DNA from: Nitrospirota bacterium
GTDB taxonomy: Bacteria > JACPQY01
Assembly: GCA_016180645.1 (NCBI GenBank)
Contig: JACPAV010000007.1
Span: forward strand, 40,888-104,887
Direction of reading: 5' to 3'
DNA: 64,000 bases
In this document: positions 8,435-26,096 of the stretch, piece by piece
Layout of the letters: each line of letters opens with the position of its first letter
Numbering within the stretch: position 1 is the stretch's first letter
Made by a program: the position numbers and the translations under genes
The notes under the pieces: generated by a model
The model's input: only the letters and a program-made list of their open reading frames with translations
What the model was told of the DNA's origin: nothing
Databases searched by the model: none

Positions 8435-8527
8435 GAGTCTTTCTCCTTCCTACCGATTCACCACATTCCGGGCATACGTGCAAATCTTGGACCGACCGCA
8501 TCTCACGACCTAATCCTAGACGCTCCC

Positions 8528-8609
8528 GAAATCGGAAATCGGCGAAATCAGGAAATCGGGGGACACCCTACCGATTCTTCCAATCGTGAAATCTGTAGGG
8601 TGTCCCCGG
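8528..8609. promoter_or_regulatory. divergent promoter region with a 4x tandem GAAATCG heptamer array followed by a 13-bp perfect inverted repeat (ggggacaccctac ... gtagggtgtcccc)
   Basis: Read directly: gaaatcg gaaatcg gcgaaatca ggaaatcg ggggacaccctac cgattcttccaatcgtgaaatct gtagggtgtcccc. Lies between the divergent carboxyltransferase and radical-SAM genes. Confidence 0.5.
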
Positions 8610-8693
8610 ATTCACGTAGAGATGGCTGCGACTCTGAAGCCGATCCATCTCCCATGGGGGCTTGAACCCCGCCGTGAGTTAGCATACATTAGT

Positions 8694-9812: not shown

Positions 9813-10005
9813 ACGAGACGTTGACGCGCGCGCGGTAGGCGTTGACCTTCCCGTTCGCCATCGTTACGTCCAGCTTGGTGACCTCGCCCACGCGAAGGTC
9901 TTTGAGCGACTTACCGGCCATTTCCAGGGCGGTCTTCACCGCATCTTCCCAGGATTTGCTGCTGGTGCCCACGAGTTCGATGATCTTGTACACGCTTGAA
10001 GACAT
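9790..10005 (-). CDS. dodecin-family flavin-binding protein
   Basis: MSSSVYKIIELVGTSSKSWEDAVKTALEMAGKSLKDLRVGEVTKLDVTMANGKVNAYRARVNVSFKY matches the dodecin signature. Confidence 0.7.
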   Translation of the reverse strand: MSSSVYKIIELVGTSSKSWEDAVKTALEMAGKSLKDLRVGEVTKLDVTMANGKVNAYRARVNVSFKYSKKD

Positions 10006-10103
10006 GGTTCCTCCTTTTGTTTGCCTACCCATTGTCCATCATTCAGATCAAGACTCAACTGAAAACGCGTGCGGTGGATCGGGCCGTTCCTGTGAAGGGC
10101 CGC

Positions 10104-11219
10104 CTACAGGACCGCTCCGCGATCCGCCGGTAGGACCACGCGGAACGTGGAGCCGACGCCCAGTTGGCTCTCTGCCTCCAGCGTTCCTCCCATGCGTTCC
10201 ACGATGCGGTAGGAGAGATAGAGGCCCAGCCCCATTCCCTTCCCCGCGGGCTTTGTGGTGAAGAAGGGTTCGAACAAATGCGGCATGTGTTCGGCGGCGA
10301 TGCCGGCTCCGGTGTCTTCGATCTCGACTCTCACCGTGCCGTTTGATTCCCGGGTTCGGAGCCGAATGGTTCCCTGCGTCGAGATCGCCTGGGCGGCGTT
10401 CAACAGAAGATTGAGAAACACTTGAGTGAGACGGCGGGGCGCGCAGGGGATTTTGGAAACGCTACCGTACTCCTTCGCGATTTCGGCTTTGTGTCGAAGT
10501 TCATTGGCCATGATTCCCAGGGCGGAGTCGAGTATGGCGTTGATGTCCGTCGGCTCGATTTCGCTTTCATCCACGTGGGCGAACTCGCGGAGGTCCGACA
10601 CGATCTTCGAGATTCGGTCGGCCCCTTCGTGCGATTCCCGAACGAGGTCCCCCAGATCCCCGGTGATCCGATCCATCTTCTCCGACTCGCGAATTCGGCG
10701 GATGTCGGCGAGCGATTCCTGGAGATCGCCCTGGGGTAACCGGCCCGCCCTGTCCTCCAGGGTTCGATACGCCCGCAACACGGTGATCAGGCTGCGAACG
10801 TATCGGGCCAGCACGGCGAGGTTGTTCTGGAGAAAGGCCATGGGATTGTTGATCTCGTGCGCGATGCCCGCCGTGAGCGTTCCGAGGGAGACCAATTTCT
10901 CCGCTTGAATGAGCTGCGATTCGTGGGAGCTCAGAAGCTCCAGCGCCGCCTGGCGTTCCTCGAGAATCCGGTTCACGGCCCGCGCGAGATCCTGAAGATG
11001 AAGCGGCGCGTCCGGGTCCAATGTCAGCCTCGCGGCGGGGCCTTTTCGGGCCAAGGTGTTCAGGGCGTCGATGAGCGACTGGATTTCCTTCGGATGCCGA
11101 GGGCCGCGGCGACGATCGGCGGGAGGGATTTCGGATGACGCGGGCGGCTTCCGACCCCGCGCCGATGCGCTCGATTTCCGCATCCCCATGCCCGCAACTA
11201 TGCCATAACCGCCTGTCAT
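10104..11219 (-). CDS. cytoplasmic sensor histidine kinase (HisKA + HATPase_c; no TM/sensor domain); start approximate
   Basis: H-box …AGIAHEINNPMAF…, then N/G1/G2 boxes (…LLNAAQAI…, …DTGAGI…, …GMGLGL…). No hydrophobic segments N-terminal. Confidence 0.8.
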   Translation of the reverse strand: MTGGYGIVAGMGMRKSSASARGRKPPASSEIPPADRRRGPRHPKEIQSLIDALNTLARKGPAARLTLDPDAPLHLQDLARAVNRILEERQAALELLSSHESQLIQAEKLVSLGTLTAGIAHEINNPMAFLQNNLAVLARYVRSLITVLRAYRTLEDRAGRLPQGDLQESLADIRRIRESEKMDRITGDLGDLVRESHEGADRISKIVSDLREFAHVDESEIEPTDINAILDSALGIMANELRHKAEIAKEYGSVSKIPCAPRRLTQVFLNLLLNAAQAISTQGTIRLRTRESNGTVRVEIEDTGAGIAAEHMPHLFEPFFTTKPAGKGMGLGLYLSYRIVERMGGTLEAESQLGVGSTFRVVLPADRGAVL

Positions 11220-12685: not shown

Positions 12686-13363
12686 ACCGGTCCGGTCGGG
12701 CGGCACCTCCCGAATTCAGGTCCGGATTCCCGTGCTTTCGGTCACTCCATCGTCCGTTCGGAGCCGGAGGATTGTTCGGCGGCCCGGCCGAACGGACGGG
12801 ACGTCCATCCGACAACGGTGAGCACCCGGATTTCTCCGTCTTCTCGGGTGGATTCCAGCGCTCGGAAAAACACACCCCTTGCGCCCATCACTGGCACGGT
12901 TTCTGCGTATCCACTCAACATGAGATTCACCATCATGATTCGAAACCTGCTCGGTGCGTCGGAACCTCTCGGGAGCGCAGGGTTTCCCATCCTTCATCAT
13001 CCGTTACTCTACCGGAGCGAACAGGCGCTGGCGGCCAACGAATACTCCGGCCCCAGACGATCGGGCTGGCGTCGACTGGTCCGTGAGATACGCCGATACC
13101 CGCGATTCTATTTCATGTCCGGCGTGCTCACCGGGCTGATCAGCTTCTTCGTGGTGAGCTGGTGGGTGGGCCAGGGACCGGCGGAGATTCGATCGGCGTC
13201 CGCTCAGAGTCTGGTGGCGTCTGCCACTGAAGTGGACGTGGATGCGCTCATCCAAGCCCAGCTCGTGATCAATCAGGCGTTGGCTCAGATGTACACGCGG
13301 CAGCAGATGGGAACCGGAAGACTCCCCCCGCGTTAGGTCCGATCCGGCCGACGCGGCGGGAAC

Positions 13364-14014
13364 CTACCTCGGACCGGGCGCGACGCGAACCCCGCCTCGA
13401 ACCCCGCCTCGAACGCCAAGCGAAACCTGGATCGACGATCCGGCGGGCGGAAATGTGGCCCCCTTGGCACTGAAGCTGTGGGTATCTGACGCGGCATTGG
13501 GCAACGAGGCATTTGTGACCACCCCGAACGGGCAGGAGGTTGCGCACATCCGGTGTCCCGGGGATTGTCCGGCCTGCTGCTTGTTGTTGCCGGTAAATCG
13601 GAGGTCGACCGTGCCGCTGCTCGGAGCCGAGCCGGAGGAGATGGCGAGAAGCTCCGCAACGGAGATGGTTTGAACTTTTCCCTGGGCGTCGGTCCAGCTC
13701 ACTACGGCGTCCATCTCGGTGCCCTGATCCATCAGGGCACTTCTCCAAGCATCGCCATTCAGATCGGACTCATCATATCCGGGCCGGGCGCCGATCGATT
13801 GAACTCCATCGTACATGGCCTGCCAGTCCATGTCGGTGGCGAACAAGGCACTCTTCGCCGCCTCGCCGGAAGCAACGATGAAATGAGGAGACTCCGAAAC
13901 TTCACCCATCCTCGCTTCAAATTGGAGAGTCTGCGGTTTCTCGTCGTCGCTGCATGTTGAAAGGAGCGGCAGCAGCATCACCGCTGCCGTCATTCGCCAA
14001 TTTCTCATTCCCAT
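13364..14014 (-). CDS. lipoprotein with C-terminal (GVRGG)n repeat, function unknown
   Basis: Signal peptide plus lipobox …AAVMLLPLLSTCSDD…; ends …GVRGGVRGGVRVAPGPR. Confidence 0.5.
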   Translation of the reverse strand: MGMRNWRMTAAVMLLPLLSTCSDDEKPQTLQFEARMGEVSESPHFIVASGEAAKSALFATDMDWQAMYDGVQSIGARPGYDESDLNGDAWRSALMDQGTEMDAVVSWTDAQGKVQTISVAELLAISSGSAPSSGTVDLRFTGNNKQQAGQSPGHRMCATSCPFGVVTNASLPNAASDTHSFSAKGATFPPAGSSIQVSLGVRGGVRGGVRVAPGPR

Positions 14015-16470: not shown

Positions 16471-16986
16471 CTACCCACACCGATACGGTTTGATCTTTCC
16501 CTCTCGGTAGAGGTTTTCGATCCCCTCGATGGTCTGATCGGAGAGGGCCGACTCGGGCCGTTCGGCCACGATCTCACCGCCCTTTCCGGCGTGGGCGTCC
16601 TTTTTCTTCATCAAGAGCCAGTTCTTCTCCTGGTTCTTGAGTCTGAAGAGCCCGAACGCGCCCTTGAGCTTCTTGCCGTCCAACTCAAACTCCAATCGTC
16701 CCTTCTTCAAATCCGATCTCAAATCTGAAATCTGAGATTTGAAATTGACGATGCCCGTGTCCCACACGATCACCGGCCCGGCGCCGTACTGCCCTTCCTC
16801 GATCACGCCCTCGAATGTGGCGTAGTCCAGGTCATGATCGTCCACCTGCACGGCGAGCCGCTTCACGGCAGGATCGATCGAGGGCCCCTTGGGAATCGCC
16901 CACGACTTGAGGACGCCGTCGATTTCAAGCCGGAAGTCGTAGTGGAGAGTGGTGGCTTTATGCTTCTGAACGGTGAAGAGGGGCAA
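16471..16986 (-). CDS. stand-alone LigD 3'-phosphoesterase (PE) domain protein
   Basis: …FTVQKHKATTLHYDFRLEIDGVLKSWAIPKGPSIDP…VDDHDLDYATFEGVIEEGQYGAGPVIVWDTG… matches the LigD-PE signature. Confidence 0.8.
   Translation of the reverse strand: MPLFTVQKHKATTLHYDFRLEIDGVLKSWAIPKGPSIDPAVKRLAVQVDDHDLDYATFEGVIEEGQYGAGPVIVWDTGIVNFKSQISDLRSDLKKGRLEFELDGKKLKGAFGLFRLKNQEKNWLLMKKKDAHAGKGGEIVAERPESALSDQTIEGIENLYREGKIKPYRCG
16707..16748. repeat. heptamer-array repeat embedded in frame in the LigD-PE coding sequence (encodes …FKSQISDLRSDLK…)
   Basis: atttcaaatctcagatttcagatttgagatcgg on the coding strand matches the aaatctcaaatctcaaatctgaaatc core of the 4HB-associated repeats. It translates to the same KSQISxLxS peptide as in the 4HB gene. 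Confidence 0.6.
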
Positions 16987-16995
16987 GGAAAGGGA

Positions 16996-17673
16996 TCAGG
17001 CCTCCGCTCTCCGGGTCCCCCGACCGTTGAGCAGGTGCCGCTTGACCATGGCAACGGCCTCCGCGGGAGACTGCGCCAGATTCACCAGCCGGTAGTCGCC
17101 GTCCCGAATGAGGAGTTCTTCGCCGAAGACGGCAAAAACGCGGTTCCAGAAATCGCCGAGGAGGATGATGGGTTTCTTGACGATCCCTGCCTGGCGGAGC
17201 GACCAGATGAGTGTCAATTCCGTGAGCGTCCCTACGCCGCCACGAAGCACGACAAAGGCGTCCGCCATCGAAATGAATCGCTTGAGCCTCTTGTAGATCT
17301 CGGGATGGTGGAAGACCCTGTCCAGATAGCGGTTGGGCTTGTAGTCCTTGAACTCCTCTGTGGTGAGGCCGGCGGTGGGACCCCCGGCTTCCCTCGCGCC
17401 GCGCGAAACGGCTTCCATGCTGCCCTGGTAGCCTCCCGTGATGACTTGGAATCCGGCTTCAGCGAGCATCCGGCCCAGCGAGCGCGCATCGCGGTAGTTG
17501 GGATCGCCGTCGGACGTCAGAGAGCCGCAGAAAACAGCCACCGTCTTGATCTGACCTCCACGATGGGGGAAATGTCGCGGGAGGGCAGGAGCCCGGAGCG
17601 ACCGACCTCCACGATGGGGGAAATGTCGCGGGAGGGCAGGAGCCCGGAGCGACCGACCTCCATTTCGTTTCAT
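16996..17673 (-). CDS. LOG-family protein (cytokinin riboside 5'-monophosphate phosphoribohydrolase-like); N-terminus carries a tandem 17-aa duplication, true start uncertain
   Basis: …IKTVAVFCGS…; …PGGYGTLEE-like GGVGTLTELT…; …KPIILLG…. The N-terminal extension GGRSLRAPALPRHFPHR occurs twice. Confidence 0.75.
   Translation of the reverse strand: MKRNGGRSLRAPALPRHFPHRGGRSLRAPALPRHFPHRGGQIKTVAVFCGSLTSDGDPNYRDARSLGRMLAEAGFQVITGGYQGSMEAVSRGAREAGGPTAGLTTEEFKDYKPNRYLDRVFHHPEIYKRLKRFISMADAFVVLRGGVGTLTELTLIWSLRQAGIVKKPIILLGDFWNRVFAVFGEELLIRDGDYRLVNLAQSPAEAVAMVKRHLLNGRGTRRAEA
17555..17662. repeat. 51-bp perfect tandem duplication (2.1 copies), in frame at the 5' end of the LOG gene
   Basis: Unit cctccacgatgggggaaatgtcgcgggagggcaggagcccggagcgaccga repeats at 17555-17605 and 17606-17656, with a partial third start. 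Confidence 0.9.
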
Positions 17674-17884: not shown

Positions 17885-18799
17885 CTATAGCTTGAAAACG
17901 TCCCGCGCGGTCTTCCACAAGAGGGCGTCGCATGCCTCCGGCTTGAGATCGAGCTTCTCGACCTGATCGAGGGTCTCCGTGTGGAGGAGAATGGGGTAGT
18001 CCGTTCCCCACATTACCTTGCCGATTCCTCGGGAATTCATGAATTGTACAAGCTTGGGGTCCCAATACTTCGGCGCGTGCGCCGCGCAGCCAATGAAGAC
18101 GTTTTTATGCTTCCAGGAGACGGCCACCAATTCTTCCACCCACGGCCAGCCCGTGTGCGAGGCGACGAATTTCAGTTCAGGGAAGTAGAGGGCGATGTCG
18201 TCGATGTAGATTGGCCGCCCCATCTCGGAGGGCATCCGCTCCGCCGAGTGGCCCACCTGCGCCACCACCGGAACGCCCAGTTCTTCGCATTTGGCGTAGA
18301 ACGGCCACACGTCCCGTCCATTCAGCGGTACGTTGAAACCGAAGGGGTGAAAAAAGACGCCCTTGAAATTGTAATTGCGCACGAGGCTCTCGATTTCCTT
18401 CACGCCCCTCATGCGCTGGTACGGGTTCAGGCGGGCGATGCCGTAGAAACGGTCCGGGTACTTCTCCGTGAGCGGAATCACGTCCTCGGGATCCACGGTA
18501 TGAACCGAACCGGGAAAATCGTACGATCCCAGTGCGGAAATCGGGATCAGCACCTTGTCGATTCCGGCGGCGTCCAGGACATCGATGAACGCCTCGGGAG
18601 AATGGCCCTTGATCCGATCCTCGATGTTCCACCATTTGAGTACGGAGCCGACTTCGGGATTGTCGAGGAAGATCTTCTTCAACCCCTGCGGTGTGAAGAC
18701 GTTGCAGAAGTAATCGATGACTTTCGCGGTCACGATGGGGAAGCTACCACACGGCCGAGCCCGTCGCCAAGGCGCTCGTTCGCCGTCAGGACCTTGCAT
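17885..18799 (-). CDS. amidohydrolase-2 family (TIM-barrel metal-dependent hydrolase/decarboxylase-like); start approximate
   Basis: …NVFTPQG…; …FHPFGFNVPLNG…; …HTGWPWVEE…; …MWGTDYP… are characteristic of the ACMSD/amidohydrolase_2 fold. Confidence 0.65.
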   Translation of the reverse strand: MQGPDGERAPWRRARPCGSFPIVTAKVIDYFCNVFTPQGLKKIFLDNPEVGSVLKWWNIEDRIKGHSPEAFIDVLDAAGIDKVLIPISALGSYDFPGSVHTVDPEDVIPLTEKYPDRFYGIARLNPYQRMRGVKEIESLVRNYNFKGVFFHPFGFNVPLNGRDVWPFYAKCEELGVPVVAQVGHSAERMPSEMGRPIYIDDIALYFPELKFVASHTGWPWVEELVAVSWKHKNVFIGCAAHAPKYWDPKLVQFMNSRGIGKVMWGTDYPILLHTETLDQVEKLDLKPEACDALLWKTARDVFKL

Positions 18800-18836
18800 G
18801 GGCGCCGATCCGTTGACATTGCACGTCGGCCGAGCG

Positions 18837-18864
18837 GTAGGGGCGAGGCATGCCTCGCCCCTAC
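18837..18864. repeat. 28-nt perfect palindrome gtaggggcgaggcatgcctcgcccctac (REP-like); second copy at 37722..37745
   Basis: Read directly; the two sites share 24 identical nt. The first is in a divergent intergenic region, the second immediately after the dnaK stop. Confidence 0.7.
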
Positions 18865-18902
18865 ACCTTCACGCCGGGTTATGATAGGGGATTTGGAAGG
18901 CG

Positions 18903-19973
18903 ATGGAATCAACATCGGAACGGAAACTGCTTCAGGAATCGCTCGCGCGTTTGCTGAAGGAGCGATGCGGCATCGAGAAGGTGCGGGGGTTCATCAAGAG
19001 CGGTGAACCGGACGGCGGCCTCTGGAAGGAGTTGGGTGAAATGGGCTTCCTGGGCCTGCTGGCGCCCTCGGAGTTGGGCGGCATGGCGGGCTCGCCGGCG
19101 GACCTTCTCGCCGTACAGTCCGAGATGGGGCGGCGACTCGTTCCACTTCCGTACCTTCAGCACGTTGCTGCGATCTACCTTTTGTCTCAAACCGGCGCGA
19201 AGGCGTCCTCGGACATTCTCAGGAAGGCGATTTCCGGCGAGGTGAGACTTTCCCTACCCCTCGGAGCCGATTCGCTCCGATGGTGCGCGAAGGGCACGGG
19301 AAAGTCTCCGGAGAAACATCTGCTGCCCTTTGGTCCGGCCGTGGACCACGTCGTCGGGGCTGCGGCCGAACGCGGGAAGGTCGAGGTCCGGTTGATTCCA
19401 TCGGCCGGCAAGGGGATCGTGCTCAAGAGAGTGGACTCGATCGACCTGACGCATCCCCTTTACACATTCAAGTCGTCGTCGAAAACATCGACGGATCTGC
19501 GGTTCCAGGTTCCAAAGGACAGATGGGCAAAGGTCCTGGCCGAAACGGATCTCCTTACGACGGCCGCCGTATGCGCCGAAATCCTGGGGGGCGCGGAGGA
19601 AGCGCTTCGACTCACCATCGAGTACACCAAGGCGCGCACGCAGTTCGATCGCCCTATTGGGACATTTCAAGCGGTACAGCACAAAGCCGCCAACGCCGGT
19701 GTCCTGCTTGAAGGGATTCGATCCTACGTGGCGCAGGCCTCGGTCTTGGTTTCCTCGAACAGTCCCGGCCGCAAGAGAGCCGTTCAGATGGCCAAGGCGT
19801 ACGCGTCGGACGCCTATCTCAGGATCGCGGAGACCGGTCTCCAACTCCACGGCGGCATCGGCTATACGTGGGAGCACGACATCCACCTGTACCTCCGCCA
19901 CGCGAAACGGTGCGGGCAGTCGCACGGCGATCCATCCAGCCTCCGCGAACTCCACGTGCAGGCCATCCGGTAA
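18903..19973 (+). CDS. acyl-CoA dehydrogenase-family protein (shorter, possibly a non-catalytic partner subunit)
   Basis: …LGLLAPSELGGMAG…; C-terminal …IAETGLQLHGGIGYTWEHDIHLYLRHAK… is an ACAD C-terminal helical-domain motif. No obvious catalytic Glu context. Confidence 0.7.
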   Translation: MESTSERKLLQESLARLLKERCGIEKVRGFIKSGEPDGGLWKELGEMGFLGLLAPSELGGMAGSPADLLAVQSEMGRRLVPLPYLQHVAAIYLLSQTGAKASSDILRKAISGEVRLSLPLGADSLRWCAKGTGKSPEKHLLPFGPAVDHVVGAAAERGKVEVRLIPSAGKGIVLKRVDSIDLTHPLYTFKSSSKTSTDLRFQVPKDRWAKVLAETDLLTTAAVCAEILGGAEEALRLTIEYTKARTQFDRPIGTFQAVQHKAANAGVLLEGIRSYVAQASVLVSSNSPGRKRAVQMAKAYASDAYLRIAETGLQLHGGIGYTWEHDIHLYLRHAKRCGQSHGDPSSLRELHVQAIR

Positions 19974-21217: not shown

Positions 21218-22414
21218 ATGACTACAGGCATCGAAACAGAAAGCGCGGCGAATCTGAGATCCGAGGCGCGGTCTTGGATCCGAAAAAACCTTCCCAAAGA
21301 GTGGCGAGCGGCTTCCGCTGAAACCATCGGAGAGGAAAACTACATGGAGATCCGCCGTGCCTGGGCGAAGAAACTCTACGAGGCCGGCTGGGTCGGCCTC
21401 TCCTGGGCGAAGGAGTACGGCGGAAAAGGATTGTCGCTCGTGGAGGAGGTCGTTTTCGCCGAGGAGGAAGCGCTGGCGCAGGCGCCGGACTTCATCAGCC
21501 GGAACAGCGTGTACTACATTGGTCCGACGATCATTGCGCATGGGAACGAAGAGCAGAAGCGGCGATACCTCCCGAAGATGTTGTCCGCCGAGGAAGTCTG
21601 GTGCCAGGGGTATTCGGAGCCGAATGCGGGATCGGACCTGGCCTCCCTGCGGACGGCGGCGATGAAACGGGACGGACGCTGGATCGTGAACGGGCAGAAA
21701 ACGTGGACCACCATCGGGAACCACGCCACGTGGTGCTATTTCCTGGCACGCACGGATCCGTCGGCGCCGAAACACAAAGGCATCACGGCGTTTGTGGTCG
21801 ATATGAAAACGAAGGGCATCACCGTTCGTCCGATCACCACGATCACGGGCTCCACCGAATTCTCGGAAATGTTTTTCGACGACGTGGAAGTGCCGGAGGA
21901 GAATGTGCTCGGCGCGCTGAATCAGGGATGGAAAGTGACGATGACGACGCTTGGGTTCGAGCGGAGCATGAACAATTTCGCCCGCGCGGTGCTCCTCCGC
22001 TCCGAAGTGGAGGAAGTGGCCCGACTGGCCCGGCGAACGAGGCGGCACGGCCGGCCGGCGATCGAAGACGGCTGGATCGCGCAGCGCCTCGCCCAGTGCG
22101 CGGAAGAGGCCGAAGCGCTCAGGCTCACGATTCATCGCTACCTGCCCAAATGGGCGGAGACGCATCAGCCGGGGCCGGAATCGTCGGTCATCAAGATCAT
22201 GTGGTCCGAGGCTCATCAAAGGCTGATGGAATTGGCGCTCGAGGTCCTGGGACCGGGCGCTCAGCTTCGGACGGGTCCCGATGCCGAAGCCAAGGGCCGT
22301 TGGCCGATGATGTATTTGTTCACGCGCGCCGAGACCATTTACGCGGGGACGTCCGAGATTCAGCGGAACGTGGTAGCCGAGCGAATGCTGGGGATGCCGA
22401 GGGCGAAAGAGTGA
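21218..22414 (+). CDS. acyl-CoA dehydrogenase
   Basis: …CQGYSEPNAGSDLASL…; …GQKTWTT…; C-terminal …YAGTSEIQRNVVAERMLG…. Confidence 0.9.
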   Translation: MTTGIETESAANLRSEARSWIRKNLPKEWRAASAETIGEENYMEIRRAWAKKLYEAGWVGLSWAKEYGGKGLSLVEEVVFAEEEALAQAPDFISRNSVYYIGPTIIAHGNEEQKRRYLPKMLSAEEVWCQGYSEPNAGSDLASLRTAAMKRDGRWIVNGQKTWTTIGNHATWCYFLARTDPSAPKHKGITAFVVDMKTKGITVRPITTITGSTEFSEMFFDDVEVPEENVLGALNQGWKVTMTTLGFERSMNNFARAVLLRSEVEEVARLARRTRRHGRPAIEDGWIAQRLAQCAEEAEALRLTIHRYLPKWAETHQPGPESSVIKIMWSEAHQRLMELALEVLGPGAQLRTGPDAEAKGRWPMMYLFTRAETIYAGTSEIQRNVVAERMLGMPRAKE

Positions 22415-22450
22415 TTTGACATTTGAGATTTCAGATTTGAGATTCGGGAA
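22415..22450. repeat. heptamer-array repeat (atttgagatttcagatttgagatt), inverted copy flanking the 4HB gene on the left
   Basis: Its reverse complement aatctcaaatctgaaatctcaaat matches the arrays at 22722-22763, 22946-22977, 24705-24740 and 16707-16748. Confidence 0.8.
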
Positions 22451-22948
22451 ATGACGTACGAACGTTTTGAAGACTTGCCCGTGTGGAAGGCGGGGATGGA
22501 GCTCGCCGAGAAAGTGTATGCGCTCACGAAATCGCGGGAGTTTCGGCCCCAGCGATCGCTCCGAGACCAGATCGAACGGGCGGCCGTGTCGGTCTCCAAC
22601 AACATCGCCGAGGGCTTCGAGCGCGGAACAACCAACGAACTGCTCGCATTCCTCTACATTGCTCGCGGCTCAGCCGGCGAAGTCCGCTCCATGCTTCTTC
22701 TCCTGGACCGCCTTCCCGATTTCTTCAATTTGAAATCTCAAATCTCAAATCTGAAATCCCTGGCCGAATCCATCTCCTGCCAGCTTCGCGCTTGGGCCGA
22801 CTCCCTCCAGAATTCCCCCATCCAAGGCCAGCGCCACCTGACGGACAAAGTTCGGAAGCTTGAAGCTGAAAAGAAAGCCCGTAACGAGTTCATCCTCGAA
22901 ATCCACCGCATTTCCGGAAAGAAAATCCTGCGCGTGGACGAATCATGA
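22451..22948 (+). CDS. four-helix-bundle protein (23S rRNA intervening-sequence protein family, TIGR02436-like)
   Basis: …LPVWKAGMELAEKVYALTKS…QIERAAVSVSNNIAEGFERGTTNELLAFLYIARGSAGEVRSML… is the signature of this family. Confidence 0.8.
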   Translation: MTYERFEDLPVWKAGMELAEKVYALTKSREFRPQRSLRDQIERAAVSVSNNIAEGFERGTTNELLAFLYIARGSAGEVRSMLLLLDRLPDFFNLKSQISNLKSLAESISCQLRAWADSLQNSPIQGQRHLTDKVRKLEAEKKARNEFILEIHRISGKKILRVDES

Positions 22949-22977
22949 AATCTCCAATCTCAAATCTGAAATCGAAG
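22946..22977. repeat. heptamer-array repeat (gaaatctccaatctcaaatctgaaatc), right flank of the 4HB gene
   Basis: Direct-orientation copy; together with 22415-22450 it forms imperfect terminal inverted repeats around the 4HB ORF. Confidence 0.8.
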
Positions 22978-23006
22978 AAGTTAGAAGCAATGAAGGAGGA
23001 ATTGCG

Positions 23007-23912
23007 ATGGAAGTGAATTCAAAAGTGCGTTTGGACGGAAAGGTGTGCATCGTGACCGGATCGGGGAGGGGGATCGGGTTCGGGATCGCGAGGACGATGG
23101 CCGCCATCGGAGCGAGGGTCGTGGTGAACGATATCGACCAGGAGCCGCTGGACGCCGCGGTGAAGGAGATCCAGAGGGCGGGCGGCGAAGCGATCGGCGT
23201 GAAAGCTTCCGTCGGCTCCGTGGAAGACGGCCAGAAGCTGACGAAGTCGGCGCTGGACAAGTGGGGAGGTGTGGACGTGTTGGTGAACAATGCCGGGATC
23301 ACGCGCGACTCGCTCTTCCACAAAATGAGCGAGCAGCAGTGGGACGAAATCATGAACGTTCATGTGAAGGCCCTTTTCTGCTGCACGCAGCCGGTGATCC
23401 AGCATCTCGTCGAACGCCAGAAGAGCGGAGGGGCGGGCGGCAGCATCGTCAGCATGTCCTCCACGGCGGGGCTCAAGGGCAATGTGGGGCAGGCGAACTA
23501 TTCCGCCGCGAAGGCCGGCGTCCTCGGCTTCACCCTCGCGCTTGCCAAGGAAATGGAACGGTTCAAAGTCCGCGTGAATGCCGTGGCGCCCTCGGCATGG
23601 ACGCGGTTGACCTCGGCCATACCCGAAGAGGTTCTCGTCAAGAGCGTGGGGCAGGAAGGTGTGGATCGCATGAAATCGCGCAGGCCGGAGGATCTTGCGT
23701 CGATCATCTGCTTCCTCGCGTCCGATGCCGCCGACGGCGTGACCGGCCAATTCGTCCGTGCCGCGGGCAACATGATCGGCCTTTGGAACCATCCCGATGC
23801 GAAGGTGACGATCTACACCGAAGACGGTTGGACTCCCGATACCGTGGCCGCCGCCTTTGAGGACAAGCTCCGCCCCCGGATGGAGAAACTGGTGGGTATT
23901 TTCAATCAATAG
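23007..23912 (+). CDS. short-chain dehydrogenase/reductase with C-terminal extension (MFE-2/Hsd4A-like)
   Basis: RBS aaggagg then ATG; …CIVTGSGRGIGFGIA…; …NNAGI…; catalytic …YSAAKAG…. Roughly 60 extra C-terminal residues. Confidence 0.85.
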   Translation: MEVNSKVRLDGKVCIVTGSGRGIGFGIARTMAAIGARVVVNDIDQEPLDAAVKEIQRAGGEAIGVKASVGSVEDGQKLTKSALDKWGGVDVLVNNAGITRDSLFHKMSEQQWDEIMNVHVKALFCCTQPVIQHLVERQKSGGAGGSIVSMSSTAGLKGNVGQANYSAAKAGVLGFTLALAKEMERFKVRVNAVAPSAWTRLTSAIPEEVLVKSVGQEGVDRMKSRRPEDLASIICFLASDAADGVTGQFVRAAGNMIGLWNHPDAKVTIYTEDGWTPDTVAAAFEDKLRPRMEKLVGIFNQ

Positions 23913-23936
23913 CTGACGGCTGAACGCTGATTATCG

Positions 23937-24695
23937 ATGGCTAGTATCTTGAAAGGCAAAGTCGCCCTAGTCACCGCTGCCGCCGGCGCGGGGATCGGCC
24001 ACGCCACCGTGCGCGCTTTTGCGGAATTGGGCGCCGATGTGGTGGTGACCGACATCCACGAGGGGCGAACGAAGCAATTTTGCACCGACTTGGAGAAAGA
24101 ATTCGGAAGGCCCTTCCTGGGTTTGGCTGTGGACGTGACCAAAGAGGACCAGGTGAATCTTGCCGTTTCCGAAACGCACGAACGGTACGGCCGGATTGAC
24201 ATTCTGGTGAACAATGCCGCAAGAAATGTCCCCAAACCGGTTTGGGAAATGCCCACCGAAACCTGGCGATTCATTCTGGAGGTCTGCCTCACGAGCCAAT
24301 TCTTCTTCATTCGCGCGGCCCTTCCGAACATGATCGAGCGGAAATCCGGCTGCATCATCAACGTCTCGTCGGGCGCCGCGTGGGTGCCGTTCAAGTGGGG
24401 CGATTCGGCGTACTCGGCGGCCAAGGCGGGCGTGCTTGCGCTCACCCGCGCCGTGGCCGCGGAAGTCGGACCCTACAATATCCGCGTGAATGCCATTGCG
24501 CCCGATCTCATCTGGAACGATCACCTGGCCAAAATTTACCCGCCCGAATATTTCGACGACCTGAAGAAAATGTCGGTTACCGGCAAGACGGGACGCCCCG
24601 AAGACATGGCCCGCATCGCGCTTTTCCTTGCCACGGATACCTATCTTACGGGTCAAGTCATCAACGGCTCCGGCGGTATCTACATGCACCCTTGA
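23937..24695 (+). CDS. short-chain dehydrogenase/reductase
   Basis: …VALVTAAAGAGIGHA…; …NNAAR…; …YSAAKAG… Rossmann/SDR motifs. Confidence 0.85.
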   Translation: MASILKGKVALVTAAAGAGIGHATVRAFAELGADVVVTDIHEGRTKQFCTDLEKEFGRPFLGLAVDVTKEDQVNLAVSETHERYGRIDILVNNAARNVPKPVWEMPTETWRFILEVCLTSQFFFIRAALPNMIERKSGCIINVSSGAAWVPFKWGDSAYSAAKAGVLALTRAVAAEVGPYNIRVNAIAPDLIWNDHLAKIYPPEYFDDLKKMSVTGKTGRPEDMARIALFLATDTYLTGQVINGSGGIYMHP

Positions 24696-24704
24696 AACGC
24701 GGAC

Positions 24705-24740
24705 GATTTCACATTTGAAATCTCAAATCTCAAATTGCCG
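24705..24740. repeat. solo heptamer-array repeat (gatttcacatttgaaatctcaaatctcaaattg) between the SDR and AtuA-like genes
   Basis: Same aaatctcaaatct core as the 4HB-flanking repeats. Confidence 0.75.
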
Positions 24741-26096
24741 ATGAAAACCGTCCGCCTTGGCGCGGGCTCGGCCTTTTGGGGCGATGCGCTCGGCCCGGCC
24801 GTCGAACTCGTGAAGAAGGGAAACCTTCAGTACATCGGATTCGATCACTTGGCCGAACTTACGATGGCGATCCTCCAGCGCCAGAAGCGCCGCGATCCGA
24901 AGACCGGGTTCATCCCGGATCTCATCCCCTGGATGGAAACGATCGTGCCCCTCGCGGCTCCCAATGGAGTAAAGGTGATCACAAACGGCGGCGGCGCGAA
25001 TCCCGAACAAGCGGTTGAGCAGATCCTGAAACTGCCCGCCGTGGCGAAATCGGGCTGGAAGGTCGGCATGGTTCTGGGCGACGACGTGACCGATCTCGTC
25101 CGCACAATGCACGAGCAGGGTCACTCCTTCCCAAATCTCGAAACCGGCGAGCGTGACATCGATGGGATTCTTCCCCGCATGGTCGCCGCGAACGCCTATC
25201 TGGGCTCGGACGGCATCGTTGATCTGCTTGCGCAGGGTGCGGACTTGGTTGTTACGGGACGCAACACGGACAATTCGCTCTTCCTCGCGCCCCTCATGTA
25301 CGAATTCGGGTGGGGCCACGGCCGCGATACGGACCGGATTGCGGCGGGCATCGTCGTCGGTCACGTCATCGAATGCACCTGTATGTGCATGGGCGGGGCG
25401 TCGAATTTCTGGGGCGACGTTCCCCAAGCTTGGAATATCGGATTCCCCATAGCGGAGGTAACAAGCGACGGCGAGGCCGTGATCACGAAACTCCACGATG
25501 CCGGAGGAATGGTGAACGAATGGACCGTGAAAGAACACCTCGTCTACGAAATCCACGATCCGCGGGCATATGTCATGGCAGACGGAGTGGCCGATCTGAC
25601 GACCGTGAGACTGAGCAACGACGGCAAAGATCGCGTGCGTATCAGCCAAGTCAGGGGCAGGCCGCGACCGGAAGCGTACAAAGTGTTGGTTGCGTACGAA
25701 GACGGCTTTATGGGTGAAGCGGCCGTTTACTTCCCGTGGCCCGATGCTCTTGCAAAAGCGAAGCGGGCCGAAGAGGTCTTGAGAAAACGATTCGAACCGT
25801 GGGCCGACCGCATCCTGGATCTGCGCATCGACCGACTCGGTGTGAACGGCCTCTTGGGGGAAACTTCGCCCGAACCCGTGGATCCCAACGAGATCGGCGT
25901 GCGCGTGGCCCTCCGAACGAGGACTCAGCAGGACATTGAGAAAATCAAGCGGGAGATCGTCCACCTCTGGACGGCCGGCGGCGTCGGCGCGGCCATTCAA
26001 GCGCCCACCCCGTCGAAACCGGTCGTCTCACTCTGGCCCACGCTCGTCCCAAGGGAAAACGTGCCGGTGAGAACGGTGTTGAAGCGAGCCTCATGA
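24735..26096 (+). CDS. AtuA-like protein (acyclic terpene utilisation family, DUF1446)
   Basis: N-terminus …VRLGAGSAFWGDALGPAVELVKKGNLQYIGFDHLAELTMA… and overall ~450-aa length match the AtuA family. Confidence 0.7.
   Translation: MPMKTVRLGAGSAFWGDALGPAVELVKKGNLQYIGFDHLAELTMAILQRQKRRDPKTGFIPDLIPWMETIVPLAAPNGVKVITNGGGANPEQAVEQILKLPAVAKSGWKVGMVLGDDVTDLVRTMHEQGHSFPNLETGERDIDGILPRMVAANAYLGSDGIVDLLAQGADLVVTGRNTDNSLFLAPLMYEFGWGHGRDTDRIAAGIVVGHVIECTCMCMGGASNFWGDVPQAWNIGFPIAEVTSDGEAVITKLHDAGGMVNEWTVKEHLVYEIHDPRAYVMADGVADLTTVRLSNDGKDRVRISQVRGRPRPEAYKVLVAYEDGFMGEAAVYFPWPDALAKAKRAEEVLRKRFEPWADRILDLRIDRLGVNGLLGETSPEPVDPNEIGVRVALRTRTQQDIEKIKREIVHLWTAGGVGAAIQAPTPSKPVVSLWPTLVPRENVPVRTVLKRAS

Follow-up and report, generated by a model that had tools for sequence, protein, structure and literature searches.

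Why should a small gene for a four-helix-bundle (4HB) protein, bracketed by tandem arrays of a seven-nucleotide repeat, stand between two genes of a catabolic operon? The question arises in a 64,000-nt stretch of a Nitrospirota contig (JACPAV010000007.1; hereafter the window, with positions counted from its first letter), in which the 4HB gene lies between genes for an acyl-CoA dehydrogenase (ACAD) and a short-chain dehydrogenase (SDR). On balance, and with some reserve, we lean towards the view that the 4HB gene and its three arrays form a single accessory cassette lodged between the two operon genes, belonging to the same class as the intervening sequences (IVSs) of 23S rRNA that encode S23p.

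Orthologues of the ACAD (63-66% identity) are found in operons with the order P450, ACAD, SDR, SDR, amidohydrolase, ACADs in a metagenome-assembled genome (MAG) of the Kofleriaceae and in two other assemblies. In the orthologous operons L166-L169 and on a JGI contig, the ACAD gene abuts the SDR gene, with an ATGA overlap or an 8-nt gap, and both the 4HB gene and the arrays are absent. Because these operons have neither, the 4HB gene together with its arrays is an insertion relative to them, as had been proposed in an earlier reading of the letters alone (the sequence-only reading), which described the 4HB gene as interrupting an otherwise contiguous operon. The insertion is not recent. In L001, the closest relative found, the region is syntenic at ~74% DNA identity and the 4HB gene occupies the same place; a single unbroken alignment of the two sequences, at ~75% identity, runs across the ACAD gene, the array and the 4HB gene, so that the cassette at this locus is old and vertically inherited. 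Protein identity between the two is 88% for 4HB and 77% for the ACAD. The flanking arrays of L001 are degenerate, and a gene for an Mrr-family restriction endonuclease (L001 5186-5980), absent from the window, lies there between the 3' array and the SDR gene.

The arrays are built of the unit AAATYTS (complement SAGATTT), and we delimited them by a unit-based scan that demanded at least three units and a mean of at most one mismatch per unit (Table 1). Tandem Repeats Finder reported period-7 arrays at 16716-16745, 22413-22444, 22733-22758, 22948-22973 and 24718-24735. Furthermore, a degenerate 18-mer (AATCTSAAATCTSAAATC, up to three mismatches) gave 15 overlapping matches, exclusively at these five sites, against 0.17 expected from dinucleotide shuffles of the window, and three matches to the 26-nt core were found where none was expected. 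The same unit criterion returned no array in 80 unrelated metagenomic loci (597,211 nt), which came from an ACAD-based metagenome scan, are mostly distant paralogues and were used solely as a negative control. The 5' array (read on the reverse strand), the internal array and the 3' array have an identical 18-mer in common (AATCTCAAATCTGAAATC), giving a perfect 18-nt inverted repeat in which 22427-22444 pairs with 22956-22973 and with 22741-22758. Both flanking arrays lie hard against the coding sequences: the 5' array runs from the ACAD stop codon (TGA, 22412-22414) to 5 nt short of the 4HB ATG (22451), and the 3' array sets in within the 4HB stop codon, leaving 31 nt before the SDR ATG (23007). 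By all three methods, the five array sites claimed in the sequence-only reading are present within a few bases of where it had placed them. Its statement that one copy is in frame within a gene for a stand-alone LigD 3'-phosphoesterase (LigD-PE) was also confirmed (that copy encodes NFKSQISDLRSDLKK, and the copy in the 4HB gene NLKSQISNLKS), and Pfam and NCBIfam bear out the gene identities that it gave (PF05635/TIGR02436, ACAD, two SDRs, AtuA and LigD_N).

Table 1. The 4HB gene, its host genes and the heptamer arrays of the window (array bounds from the unit-based scan)
Feature	Position	Strand	Description	Evidence
Four-helix-bundle (4HB) gene	22451..22948	+	165 aa, S23p/23S-IVS-protein/Avd-like	Pfam, NCBIfam
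5' flanking heptamer array	22411..22445	-	~5 units, inverted relative to the other two; top strand GATTTGACATTTGAGATTTCAGATTTGAGATTC	
Internal heptamer array	22726..22760	+	~5 units, direct; encodes N93-S103	
3' flanking heptamer array	22948..22975	+	~4 units, direct	
Host acyl-CoA dehydrogenase (ACAD) gene	21218..22414	+	left of the insertion	Pfam, orthologous operons
Host short-chain dehydrogenase (SDR) gene	23007..23912	+	right of the insertion	Pfam, orthologous operons
Solo heptamer array	24704..24738	+	~5 units, between second SDR (stop 24695) and AtuA (ATG 24744)	
In-frame array within stand-alone LigD-PE gene	16713..16748	-	encodes NFKSQISDLRSDLKK, surface loop	

Beyond the window, a scan of one genome per species yielded at least 589 confirmed 4HB relatives, of which the best 80 loci (60-77% identity, 1.25 Mb) were analysed. 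They belong to Acidobacteriota, Nitrospirota, Verrucomicrobiota, Planctomycetota (including Brocadia), Desulfobacterota-type lineages, Omnitrophota, Anaerolineales and a Heliomicrobium MAG, and throughout these roughly ten phylum-level groups the arrays accompany this 4HB subfamily. The internal array is present at the DNA level in 77 of the 80 loci. Fifty-eight have a flanking array, 19 of them on both sides; 48 loci have an array within 350 nt upstream of the 4HB gene, and in 13 the 4HB stop codon lies within or abuts an array. Across the 1.25 Mb surrounding the cassettes, hardly any array is more than about 350 nt away from the 4HB gene, and the density of repeat hexamers reaches 20-30 times the background in the 100 nt upstream and the 50 nt downstream of it. 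Array length has a median of about five units, upstream, internally and downstream alike (range 3-15), with the internal array held at 3-7 units and in frame. The arrangement of inverted units before the gene and direct units after it, described in the sequence-only reading for this one locus, proved to be a general statistical trend: in 84 loci, the inverted hexamer AGATTT outnumbers AAATCT upstream (88 versus 39), while AAATCT outnumbers AGATTT downstream (44 versus 15) and direct hexamers exceed inverted ones within the gene (107 versus 56).

These 80 loci represent 44 unrelated flanking contexts. The upstream neighbour is co-oriented with the 4HB gene in 67 of 79 cases, and the 80 flanking proteins match 125 Pfam families, mostly metabolic or housekeeping. 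A visible share of the flanking genes encodes Cas1, Cas4, Csd1, Cas9 and Type ISP proteins (Cas1 three times, Cas4 twice and Csd1 once among the 44 contexts), in agreement with published notes on the occurrence of the family within cas loci.

Some of these settings have features of their own. In L133 (9792-10912), L093 and L089, the cassette sits inside a type II CRISPR-Cas operon, between the genes for Cas9 and Cas1. A 72-nt unit with the motif CAAATTTGAGATTGGAAATTG, repeated about 13 times, was found at L089 8172-9057 and L093 39-204; it is a genuine tandem repeat rather than a CRISPR array and is followed by an apparently fragmented Cas9 gene, a 105-nt heptamer array and then the 4HB gene. 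L002 (8665-10858) and L103 (9548-10787) both carry the order EutN, 4HB, EutN, with genes for EutN/CcmL microcompartment vertex proteins, in different flanking contexts. L005 has two subfamily members on the same strand, 2.6 kb apart (10001-10504 and 13107-13604) and separated by genes of the RraA-like and enolase-superfamily types; both contain the internal array, and their flanking arrays are degenerate.

The internal array, the most constant of the three, is coding sequence. In the AlphaFold2 model, the peptide that it encodes (NLKSQISNLKS) forms the start of helix 4, with L, I and L at heptad spacing, and it is conserved in all 22 homologues aligned. We compared the ten array codons of 69 4HB genes with the rest of those genes. 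Lysine is encoded by AAA in 124 of 126 array codons (98%) versus 52% elsewhere, and asparagine by AAT in 38 of 40 (95%) versus 37%. Serine codons of the AGY type do not occur among 197 array codons and make up 24% elsewhere, and the proportion of A or T at third positions is 0.67 in the array codons versus 0.34 in the remainder. The internal array is therefore under selection at the nucleotide level as well; that its synonymous sites keep to the heptamer points to a cis-acting role in DNA or RNA. The sequence-only reading had noted a copy within the 4HB ORF; this is no additional inserted copy, since it codes for a conserved stretch of helix 4 in the subfamily and is constrained in its nucleotides. 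Programmed -1 frameshifting on A AAT TTG was also considered here and dropped on sequence grounds, with poor re-pairing and no conserved open reading frame (ORF) in the alternative frame.

Comparison of close relatives reveals how the cassette changes within a fixed setting. At a Terriglobia site between a CoA-binding-protein gene and a convergent rarA gene, four states were found: empty, 4HB forward, 4HB reverse, and a 175-aa ORF together with 4HB. The empty site is a 124-nt spacer without an array. Hosts with a rarA gene 95-96% identical to that of L100 carry reverse-oriented 4HB alleles that are 77-78% identical to the L100 allele. L120, too, carries its cassette in reverse, but here cassette and host have diverged to a similar extent (85%), consistent with inversion in place. 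When L100 and L127 are compared, flank homology stops at the arrays at three of four junctions, and extra genes have been inserted beside arrays in L001 (Mrr) and in L178 (the 175-aa ORF). Between close relatives, the cassette can be missing, exchanged for a divergent allele or turned round, and arrays lie at the junctions. The small mobile cassette of the sequence-only reading thus stands as far as the 44 contexts, the presence and absence, the flips and the allele replacement go; it does not describe the copy in the window, which the L001 comparison shows to be old and vertically inherited.

Several cassettes are surrounded by duplications of host sequence. In L133, 102 nt are duplicated at 99% identity, so that the 5' end of cas1 is repeated on the upstream side while the downstream copy is intact. 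The duplication in L159 comprises 91 nt, with the 3' end of the upstream gene repeated directly after the 4HB stop codon, and that in L103 comprises 25 nt, a second copy of the downstream EutN gene's ribosome-binding site and opening codons lying upstream of the cassette. Duplications of 57 nt and 24 nt surround the cassettes of L149 and L144, respectively. Two details of the Terriglobia-type loci may be added. The 175-aa ORF of L178 (3840-4367), between the CoA-binding-protein gene and the 4HB gene, receives its stop codon from a heptamer array (...CACATTTGAGATTTC) and has no Pfam match. In L127, the 5' leader of the 4HB gene, from 260 nt upstream to about 7134, contains approximately three tandem copies of a ~90-nt unit (ggttggccaacaagcaatccgacc...).

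The encoded protein is 100% identical to one protein of a Nitrospirae MAG, and a protein search returned at least 8000 relatives, the best of which are 64-91% identical and share the peptide LKSEISNLKS. It scores 93.4 bits against PF05635 (cut-off 33.8) and 88.3 bits against TIGR02436 (cut-off 24). The AlphaFold2 monomer model (mean predicted local distance difference test score, pLDDT, 86) comprises helices at residues 10-26, 35-58, 61-87 and 89-120, to which the subfamily adds a fifth, C-terminal helix (127-155). With this model, Foldseek retrieved Xcc0516 (2GSC) and BT_0352 (2RLD), with target-normalised TM scores of 0.87 and 0.85, respectively, and also the Avd protein of a diversity-generating retroelement (DGR; 8UB7), to which sequence identity is 12-13%. 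The family motif GxxRxxxSxxxNxxE (Zhang & Ye 2013) is represented by R43-x3-S47-x3-N51-x2-E54, with Q40 in the position of the leading glycine; S47, N51 and E54 are invariant in the homologue alignment. The 4HB protein is a clear member of the S23p/Xcc0516/BT_0352 family and a distant relative of DGR Avd.

This family membership leads to the system that the locus resembles most. The S23p/PF05635 family was defined from ORFs in 23S rRNA IVSs, elements that inverted repeats delimit and RNase III cuts out. Their distribution is sporadic, horizontal acquisition is assumed and mobility has been proposed (PMC4990558). In the Coxiella IVS, two to three tandem heptamers, variable between strains, lie just upstream of the S23p ORF, and RNase III cuts at the first of them (PMC4990558). 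As in the 23S IVSs of Leptospira, Coxiella burnetii, Brucella and Xanthomonas, an ORF of this family occupies the loop enclosed by inverted repeats, here the 18-nt repeat that brackets the 4HB ORF; and as in Coxiella, tandem heptamers (five units in the window) precede the ORF. The differences are equally plain: the element lies in the mRNA of an operon, between ACAD and SDR, rather than in helix 25 or 45 of 23S rRNA; its unit is AAATYTS rather than GACAGAT; a third array is found in the coding sequence; and the protein has an additional C-terminal helix.

Because the layout is that of a 23S IVS placed within an mRNA, with its 18-nt complement and predicted fold, we favour a cassette of the IVS type. 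Its arrays may act as cis elements in nucleic acid in two ways. In the transcript, the A+U-rich 5' array would pair with the internal or the 3' array (18 perfect base pairs here), bracketing the ORF in a stem of the kind that RNase III cuts in 23S IVSs; such a stem would separate the cassette from the mRNA of the host operon and hold down translation of 4HB. In DNA, the arrays, being quasi-palindromic and prone to slippage, could offer short homologies or inverted repeats for inversion, exchange and the acquisition of neighbouring genes. In both the minimum-energy and the centroid fold, the predicted partner of the 5' array is the internal array rather than the 3' array. Comparison of the window with L001 by eye showed, moreover, that the 5' arrays differ by a G-to-A change and the internal arrays by a corresponding synonymous CTG-to-TTG change.

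A number of results weigh against this explanation. A 5' array matches its own internal array scarcely better than the internal arrays of other loci (ungapped score 12.84 versus 12.17, p = 0.013), and a duplex-energy test of locus-specific pairing in 49 independent clusters was not significant (p = 0.28 and 0.39). For the region as a whole, the predicted fold has unexceptional stability (z = -1.25), and an Rfam scan of 22000-25000 (E <= 1) found no family and no rRNA match. By the unit criterion, a flanking array is absent in 22 of the 80 loci, and among the flanking genes of the 44 contexts no recombinase or transposase linked to arrays was found. The host duplications are long, variable and unlike any known transposase signature, and that of L103 contains no array. 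The cassette of the window has been stable since before its divergence from L001 at 74% identity. Finally, the subfamily is present on only one of 2.9 million viral contigs, a count on which carriage by phages was rejected.

Two other roles for the arrays were examined and set aside. A scan for sigma-70 promoters and terminators was empty in the arrays, with one promoter-like site elsewhere at chance level, and lends no support to inverted arrays as -35/-10 promoters. As three-frame stop-codon insulators they do not qualify either, since all-frame stops occur in just 25 of 72 upstream arrays.

The principal competitor of the IVS-type cassette, which we nevertheless regard as unlikely, takes the arrays as binding sites for a pentameric 4HB protein, one unit per subunit, through which the protein would regulate its own expression; this would account for the clustering of arrays about the gene, and mobility of the cassette would be incidental. 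One unit per subunit has a model in the trp RNA-binding attenuation protein (TRAP), which binds triplet repeats. The median of about five units in upstream, internal and downstream arrays would fit such a pentamer. Proteins of the family form homopentameric rings, and Xcc0516, which the 4HB model matches, is a homopentameric toroid (PMC4990558). Likewise, the homologous Avd resides in a ribonucleoprotein with RNA (8UB7), the nucleotide-level conservation of the internal array requires a cis function of some kind, and the solo array stands directly ahead of a start codon; on this reading, the arrays before AtuA and in the LigD-PE gene would be further targets. However, inverted SAGAUUU and direct AAAUCUS are different sequences on single-stranded RNA, so that one RNA-binding surface would not read both, and it is the inverted form that is preferred upstream. 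Moreover, arrays span 3-15 units, and binding sites leave the host duplications, the allele replacement and the arrays at exchange junctions unexplained.

A bolder proposal, to which we give a small chance, would make the 4HB pentamer the specificity factor of a new minimal mobile element. Each of its subunits would read a single heptamer of single-stranded nucleic acid, and the pentamer, aided by a polymerase, reverse transcriptase or repair machinery of the host in the way that Avd works in DGRs, would have its own transcript or gene copied into new sites; long, variable host duplications would result, and the element could not do without the internal array as its recognition site. Were this so, the entry of S23p-encoding IVSs into 23S rRNA genes would be explained as well. 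With the 4HB protein, modelled here as a monomer, Avd shares a homologous four-helix-bundle fold; Avd forms a pentamer and acts in a complex with nucleic acid. In contrast to DGRs, the 4HB gene has ACAD and SDR genes for neighbours, with no adjacent reverse transcriptase or pair of template and variable repeats, and no reverse transcriptase is among the 25 commonest neighbour Pfam families.

It is similarly improbable, in our judgement, that the repeat is a functionless microsatellite that arose in the 4HB gene as a 7-nt repeat encoding an amphipathic heptad and was spread by slippage and local recombination into the flanks and now and then elsewhere. Heptanucleotides are the commonest long simple repeats in bacteria and prone to slippage (PMC4679880), array length differs between close relatives, and the repeat encodes a plausible helix with L, I and L at heptad positions. 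Nonetheless, synonymous positions have been kept to the heptamer over about ten phylum-level groups, orientation is non-random, and arrays persist beside genes that have diverged by 25-40%; imperfect units alternating at the Y and S positions are, besides, poor substrates for slippage.

We give still less credence to a classical DNA transposon, or a cassette resembling a miniature inverted-repeat transposable element (MITE), in which the arrays would be terminal inverted repeats for a transposase acting in trans and the solo arrays excision footprints. Inverted upstream and direct downstream arrays, here and as a trend across loci, the many unrelated insertion contexts and the duplications flanking some copies all speak for it. 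Yet the duplications, of 24, 25, 57, 91 and 102 nt, provide no constant short target-site duplication, and in L133, L149 and L103 their boundaries do not coincide with arrays. The 22 loci without flanking arrays and the fact that the third, internal array is the best conserved are also at odds with a transposon, as is an empty site without a footprint. No array-linked transposase was seen in the neighbourhoods examined: there is none among the 25 commonest Pfam families of the flanking proteins, and the two Y1_Tnp genes located 5-7 kb upstream of the cassette in L002 are free of arrays. The terminal inverted repeats postulated in the sequence-only reading are consequently not precise ends, given the variable duplications, the loci without flanking arrays and the lack of a linked transposase in these neighbourhoods.

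The footprints that it saw in the solo arrays are likewise unsupported, the sole empty site found having no array. Solo arrays are rare, about eight in the 1.16 Mb around cassettes; some are intergenic, and several, rather than marking vacated sites, are in frame within other ORFs, for example a cas1-like gene and those for a methylase-like protein and a helicase of the restriction type. In the window, the solo array ends 5 nt ahead of the AtuA start codon. The in-frame array of the LigD-PE gene (16471-16986, minus strand) aligns to the W-TPLDDPREGLEKG loop of Pseudomonas aeruginosa LigD-PE, taking the place of a surface loop with a net length difference of only three residues. The whole gene is missing from syntenic L001, where Bac_transf and a LOG-family gene are only ~150 nt apart, so that LigD-PE is itself an accessory gene.

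The least probable of the alternatives is a phase-variation switch, in which heptamer copy number or inversion of the cassette would toggle 4HB or downstream genes within populations: both orientations do occur at one site with arrays at the junctions, copy number varies and 7 is not a multiple of 3, but 23 contigs with one exact neighbour protein are identical in arrangement, with no polymorphism seen within the species, the internal array is fixed at 3-7 units in frame, and the opposite-orientation alleles of the closest hosts are 22% divergent, which indicates replacement rather than a reversible switch.

Other systems resemble the IVS-type cassette in part. Heptanucleotide direct-repeat arrays are known from cyanobacteria as short tandemly repeated repetitive (STRR) sequences. 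Arrays of TAACTGA occur in marine Beggiatoaceae, cyanobacteria and Bacteroidetes (MacGregor 2015, PMC4679880), with 169 sets in one genome and a suspected regulatory or mobile role (PMC4679880). Like the arrays described here, these consist of tandem 7-nt units in short intergenic regions before start codons, often in place of a Shine-Dalgarno sequence, with occasional copies inside ORFs and a scattered distribution across phyla; unlike them, they are dispersed over many genes, whereas the window-type arrays centre on one 4HB subfamily, with few elsewhere. Integron gene cassettes and Rickettsia palindromic elements, small repeats that insert in frame, offer further comparisons. Like the former, the 4HB cassette is a promoter-less unit with a single ORF, mostly co-oriented with its upstream neighbour, and an imperfect inverted-repeat element at the border; like the latter, copies of the heptamer repeat are tolerated in frame in unrelated proteins. 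However, no integrase, attI/attC site or cassette array goes with the 4HB cassettes, which are solitary in their 44 contexts, and integrases are absent among the neighbour families listed. Literature searches for the repeat sequence and for a link between 4HB proteins and heptamers yielded nothing beyond the Coxiella IVS paper (PMC4990558). We found no published description of the repeat or of its association with the 4HB subfamily, the nearest being the Coxiella IVS heptamers and the TAACTGA repeats.

The function of S23p/PF05635 proteins and the origin of the 23S IVSs that bear them have been questions since the early 1990s, and PF05635 genes recur inside operons, cas operons included. The heptamer array gives these questions a concrete cis element, on which RNase III processing, protein binding and recombination can each be addressed, and the Terriglobia site between the CoA-binding-protein and RarA genes is a natural system in which all states of the cassette are available. 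For annotation, the arrays explain many spurious mini-ORFs of the "ISNLKSEI" type and in-frame repeat patches in genomes of soil bacteria.

Some further features of the window were noted. Its gene order differs from that of the orthologous operons: in L166 and L168, the second SDR is followed by Amidohydro_2, and AtuA/AtuA_ferredoxin genes are found upstream of P450 in divergent orientation, whereas in the window an Amidohydro gene is upstream on the other strand and AtuA comes after the second SDR, as if the block from P450 to the second SDR had been inverted. The solo array before AtuA marks one junction of this difference; the other junction (18799-18905) has no array. An inversion mediated by arrays was rejected as the cause, the breakpoint at 18799-18905 being array-free and mostly part of a further ACAD-like gene. 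A different heptamer array, (GAAATCG)x4, is located in a divergent intergenic region at 8527-8559 and is followed immediately by an inverted repeat (8554-8612) with 23-nt arms that are 91% complementary and 13 nt apart; an (AAATCGG)x4 array resembling it was found at L111 938-965. Lastly, a perfect 51-nt tandem repeat of 2.2 copies (17553-17662) at the 5' end of an ORF of the LOG/lysine-decarboxylase family (16996-17673, minus strand) duplicates the peptide GGRSLRAPALPRHFPHR.

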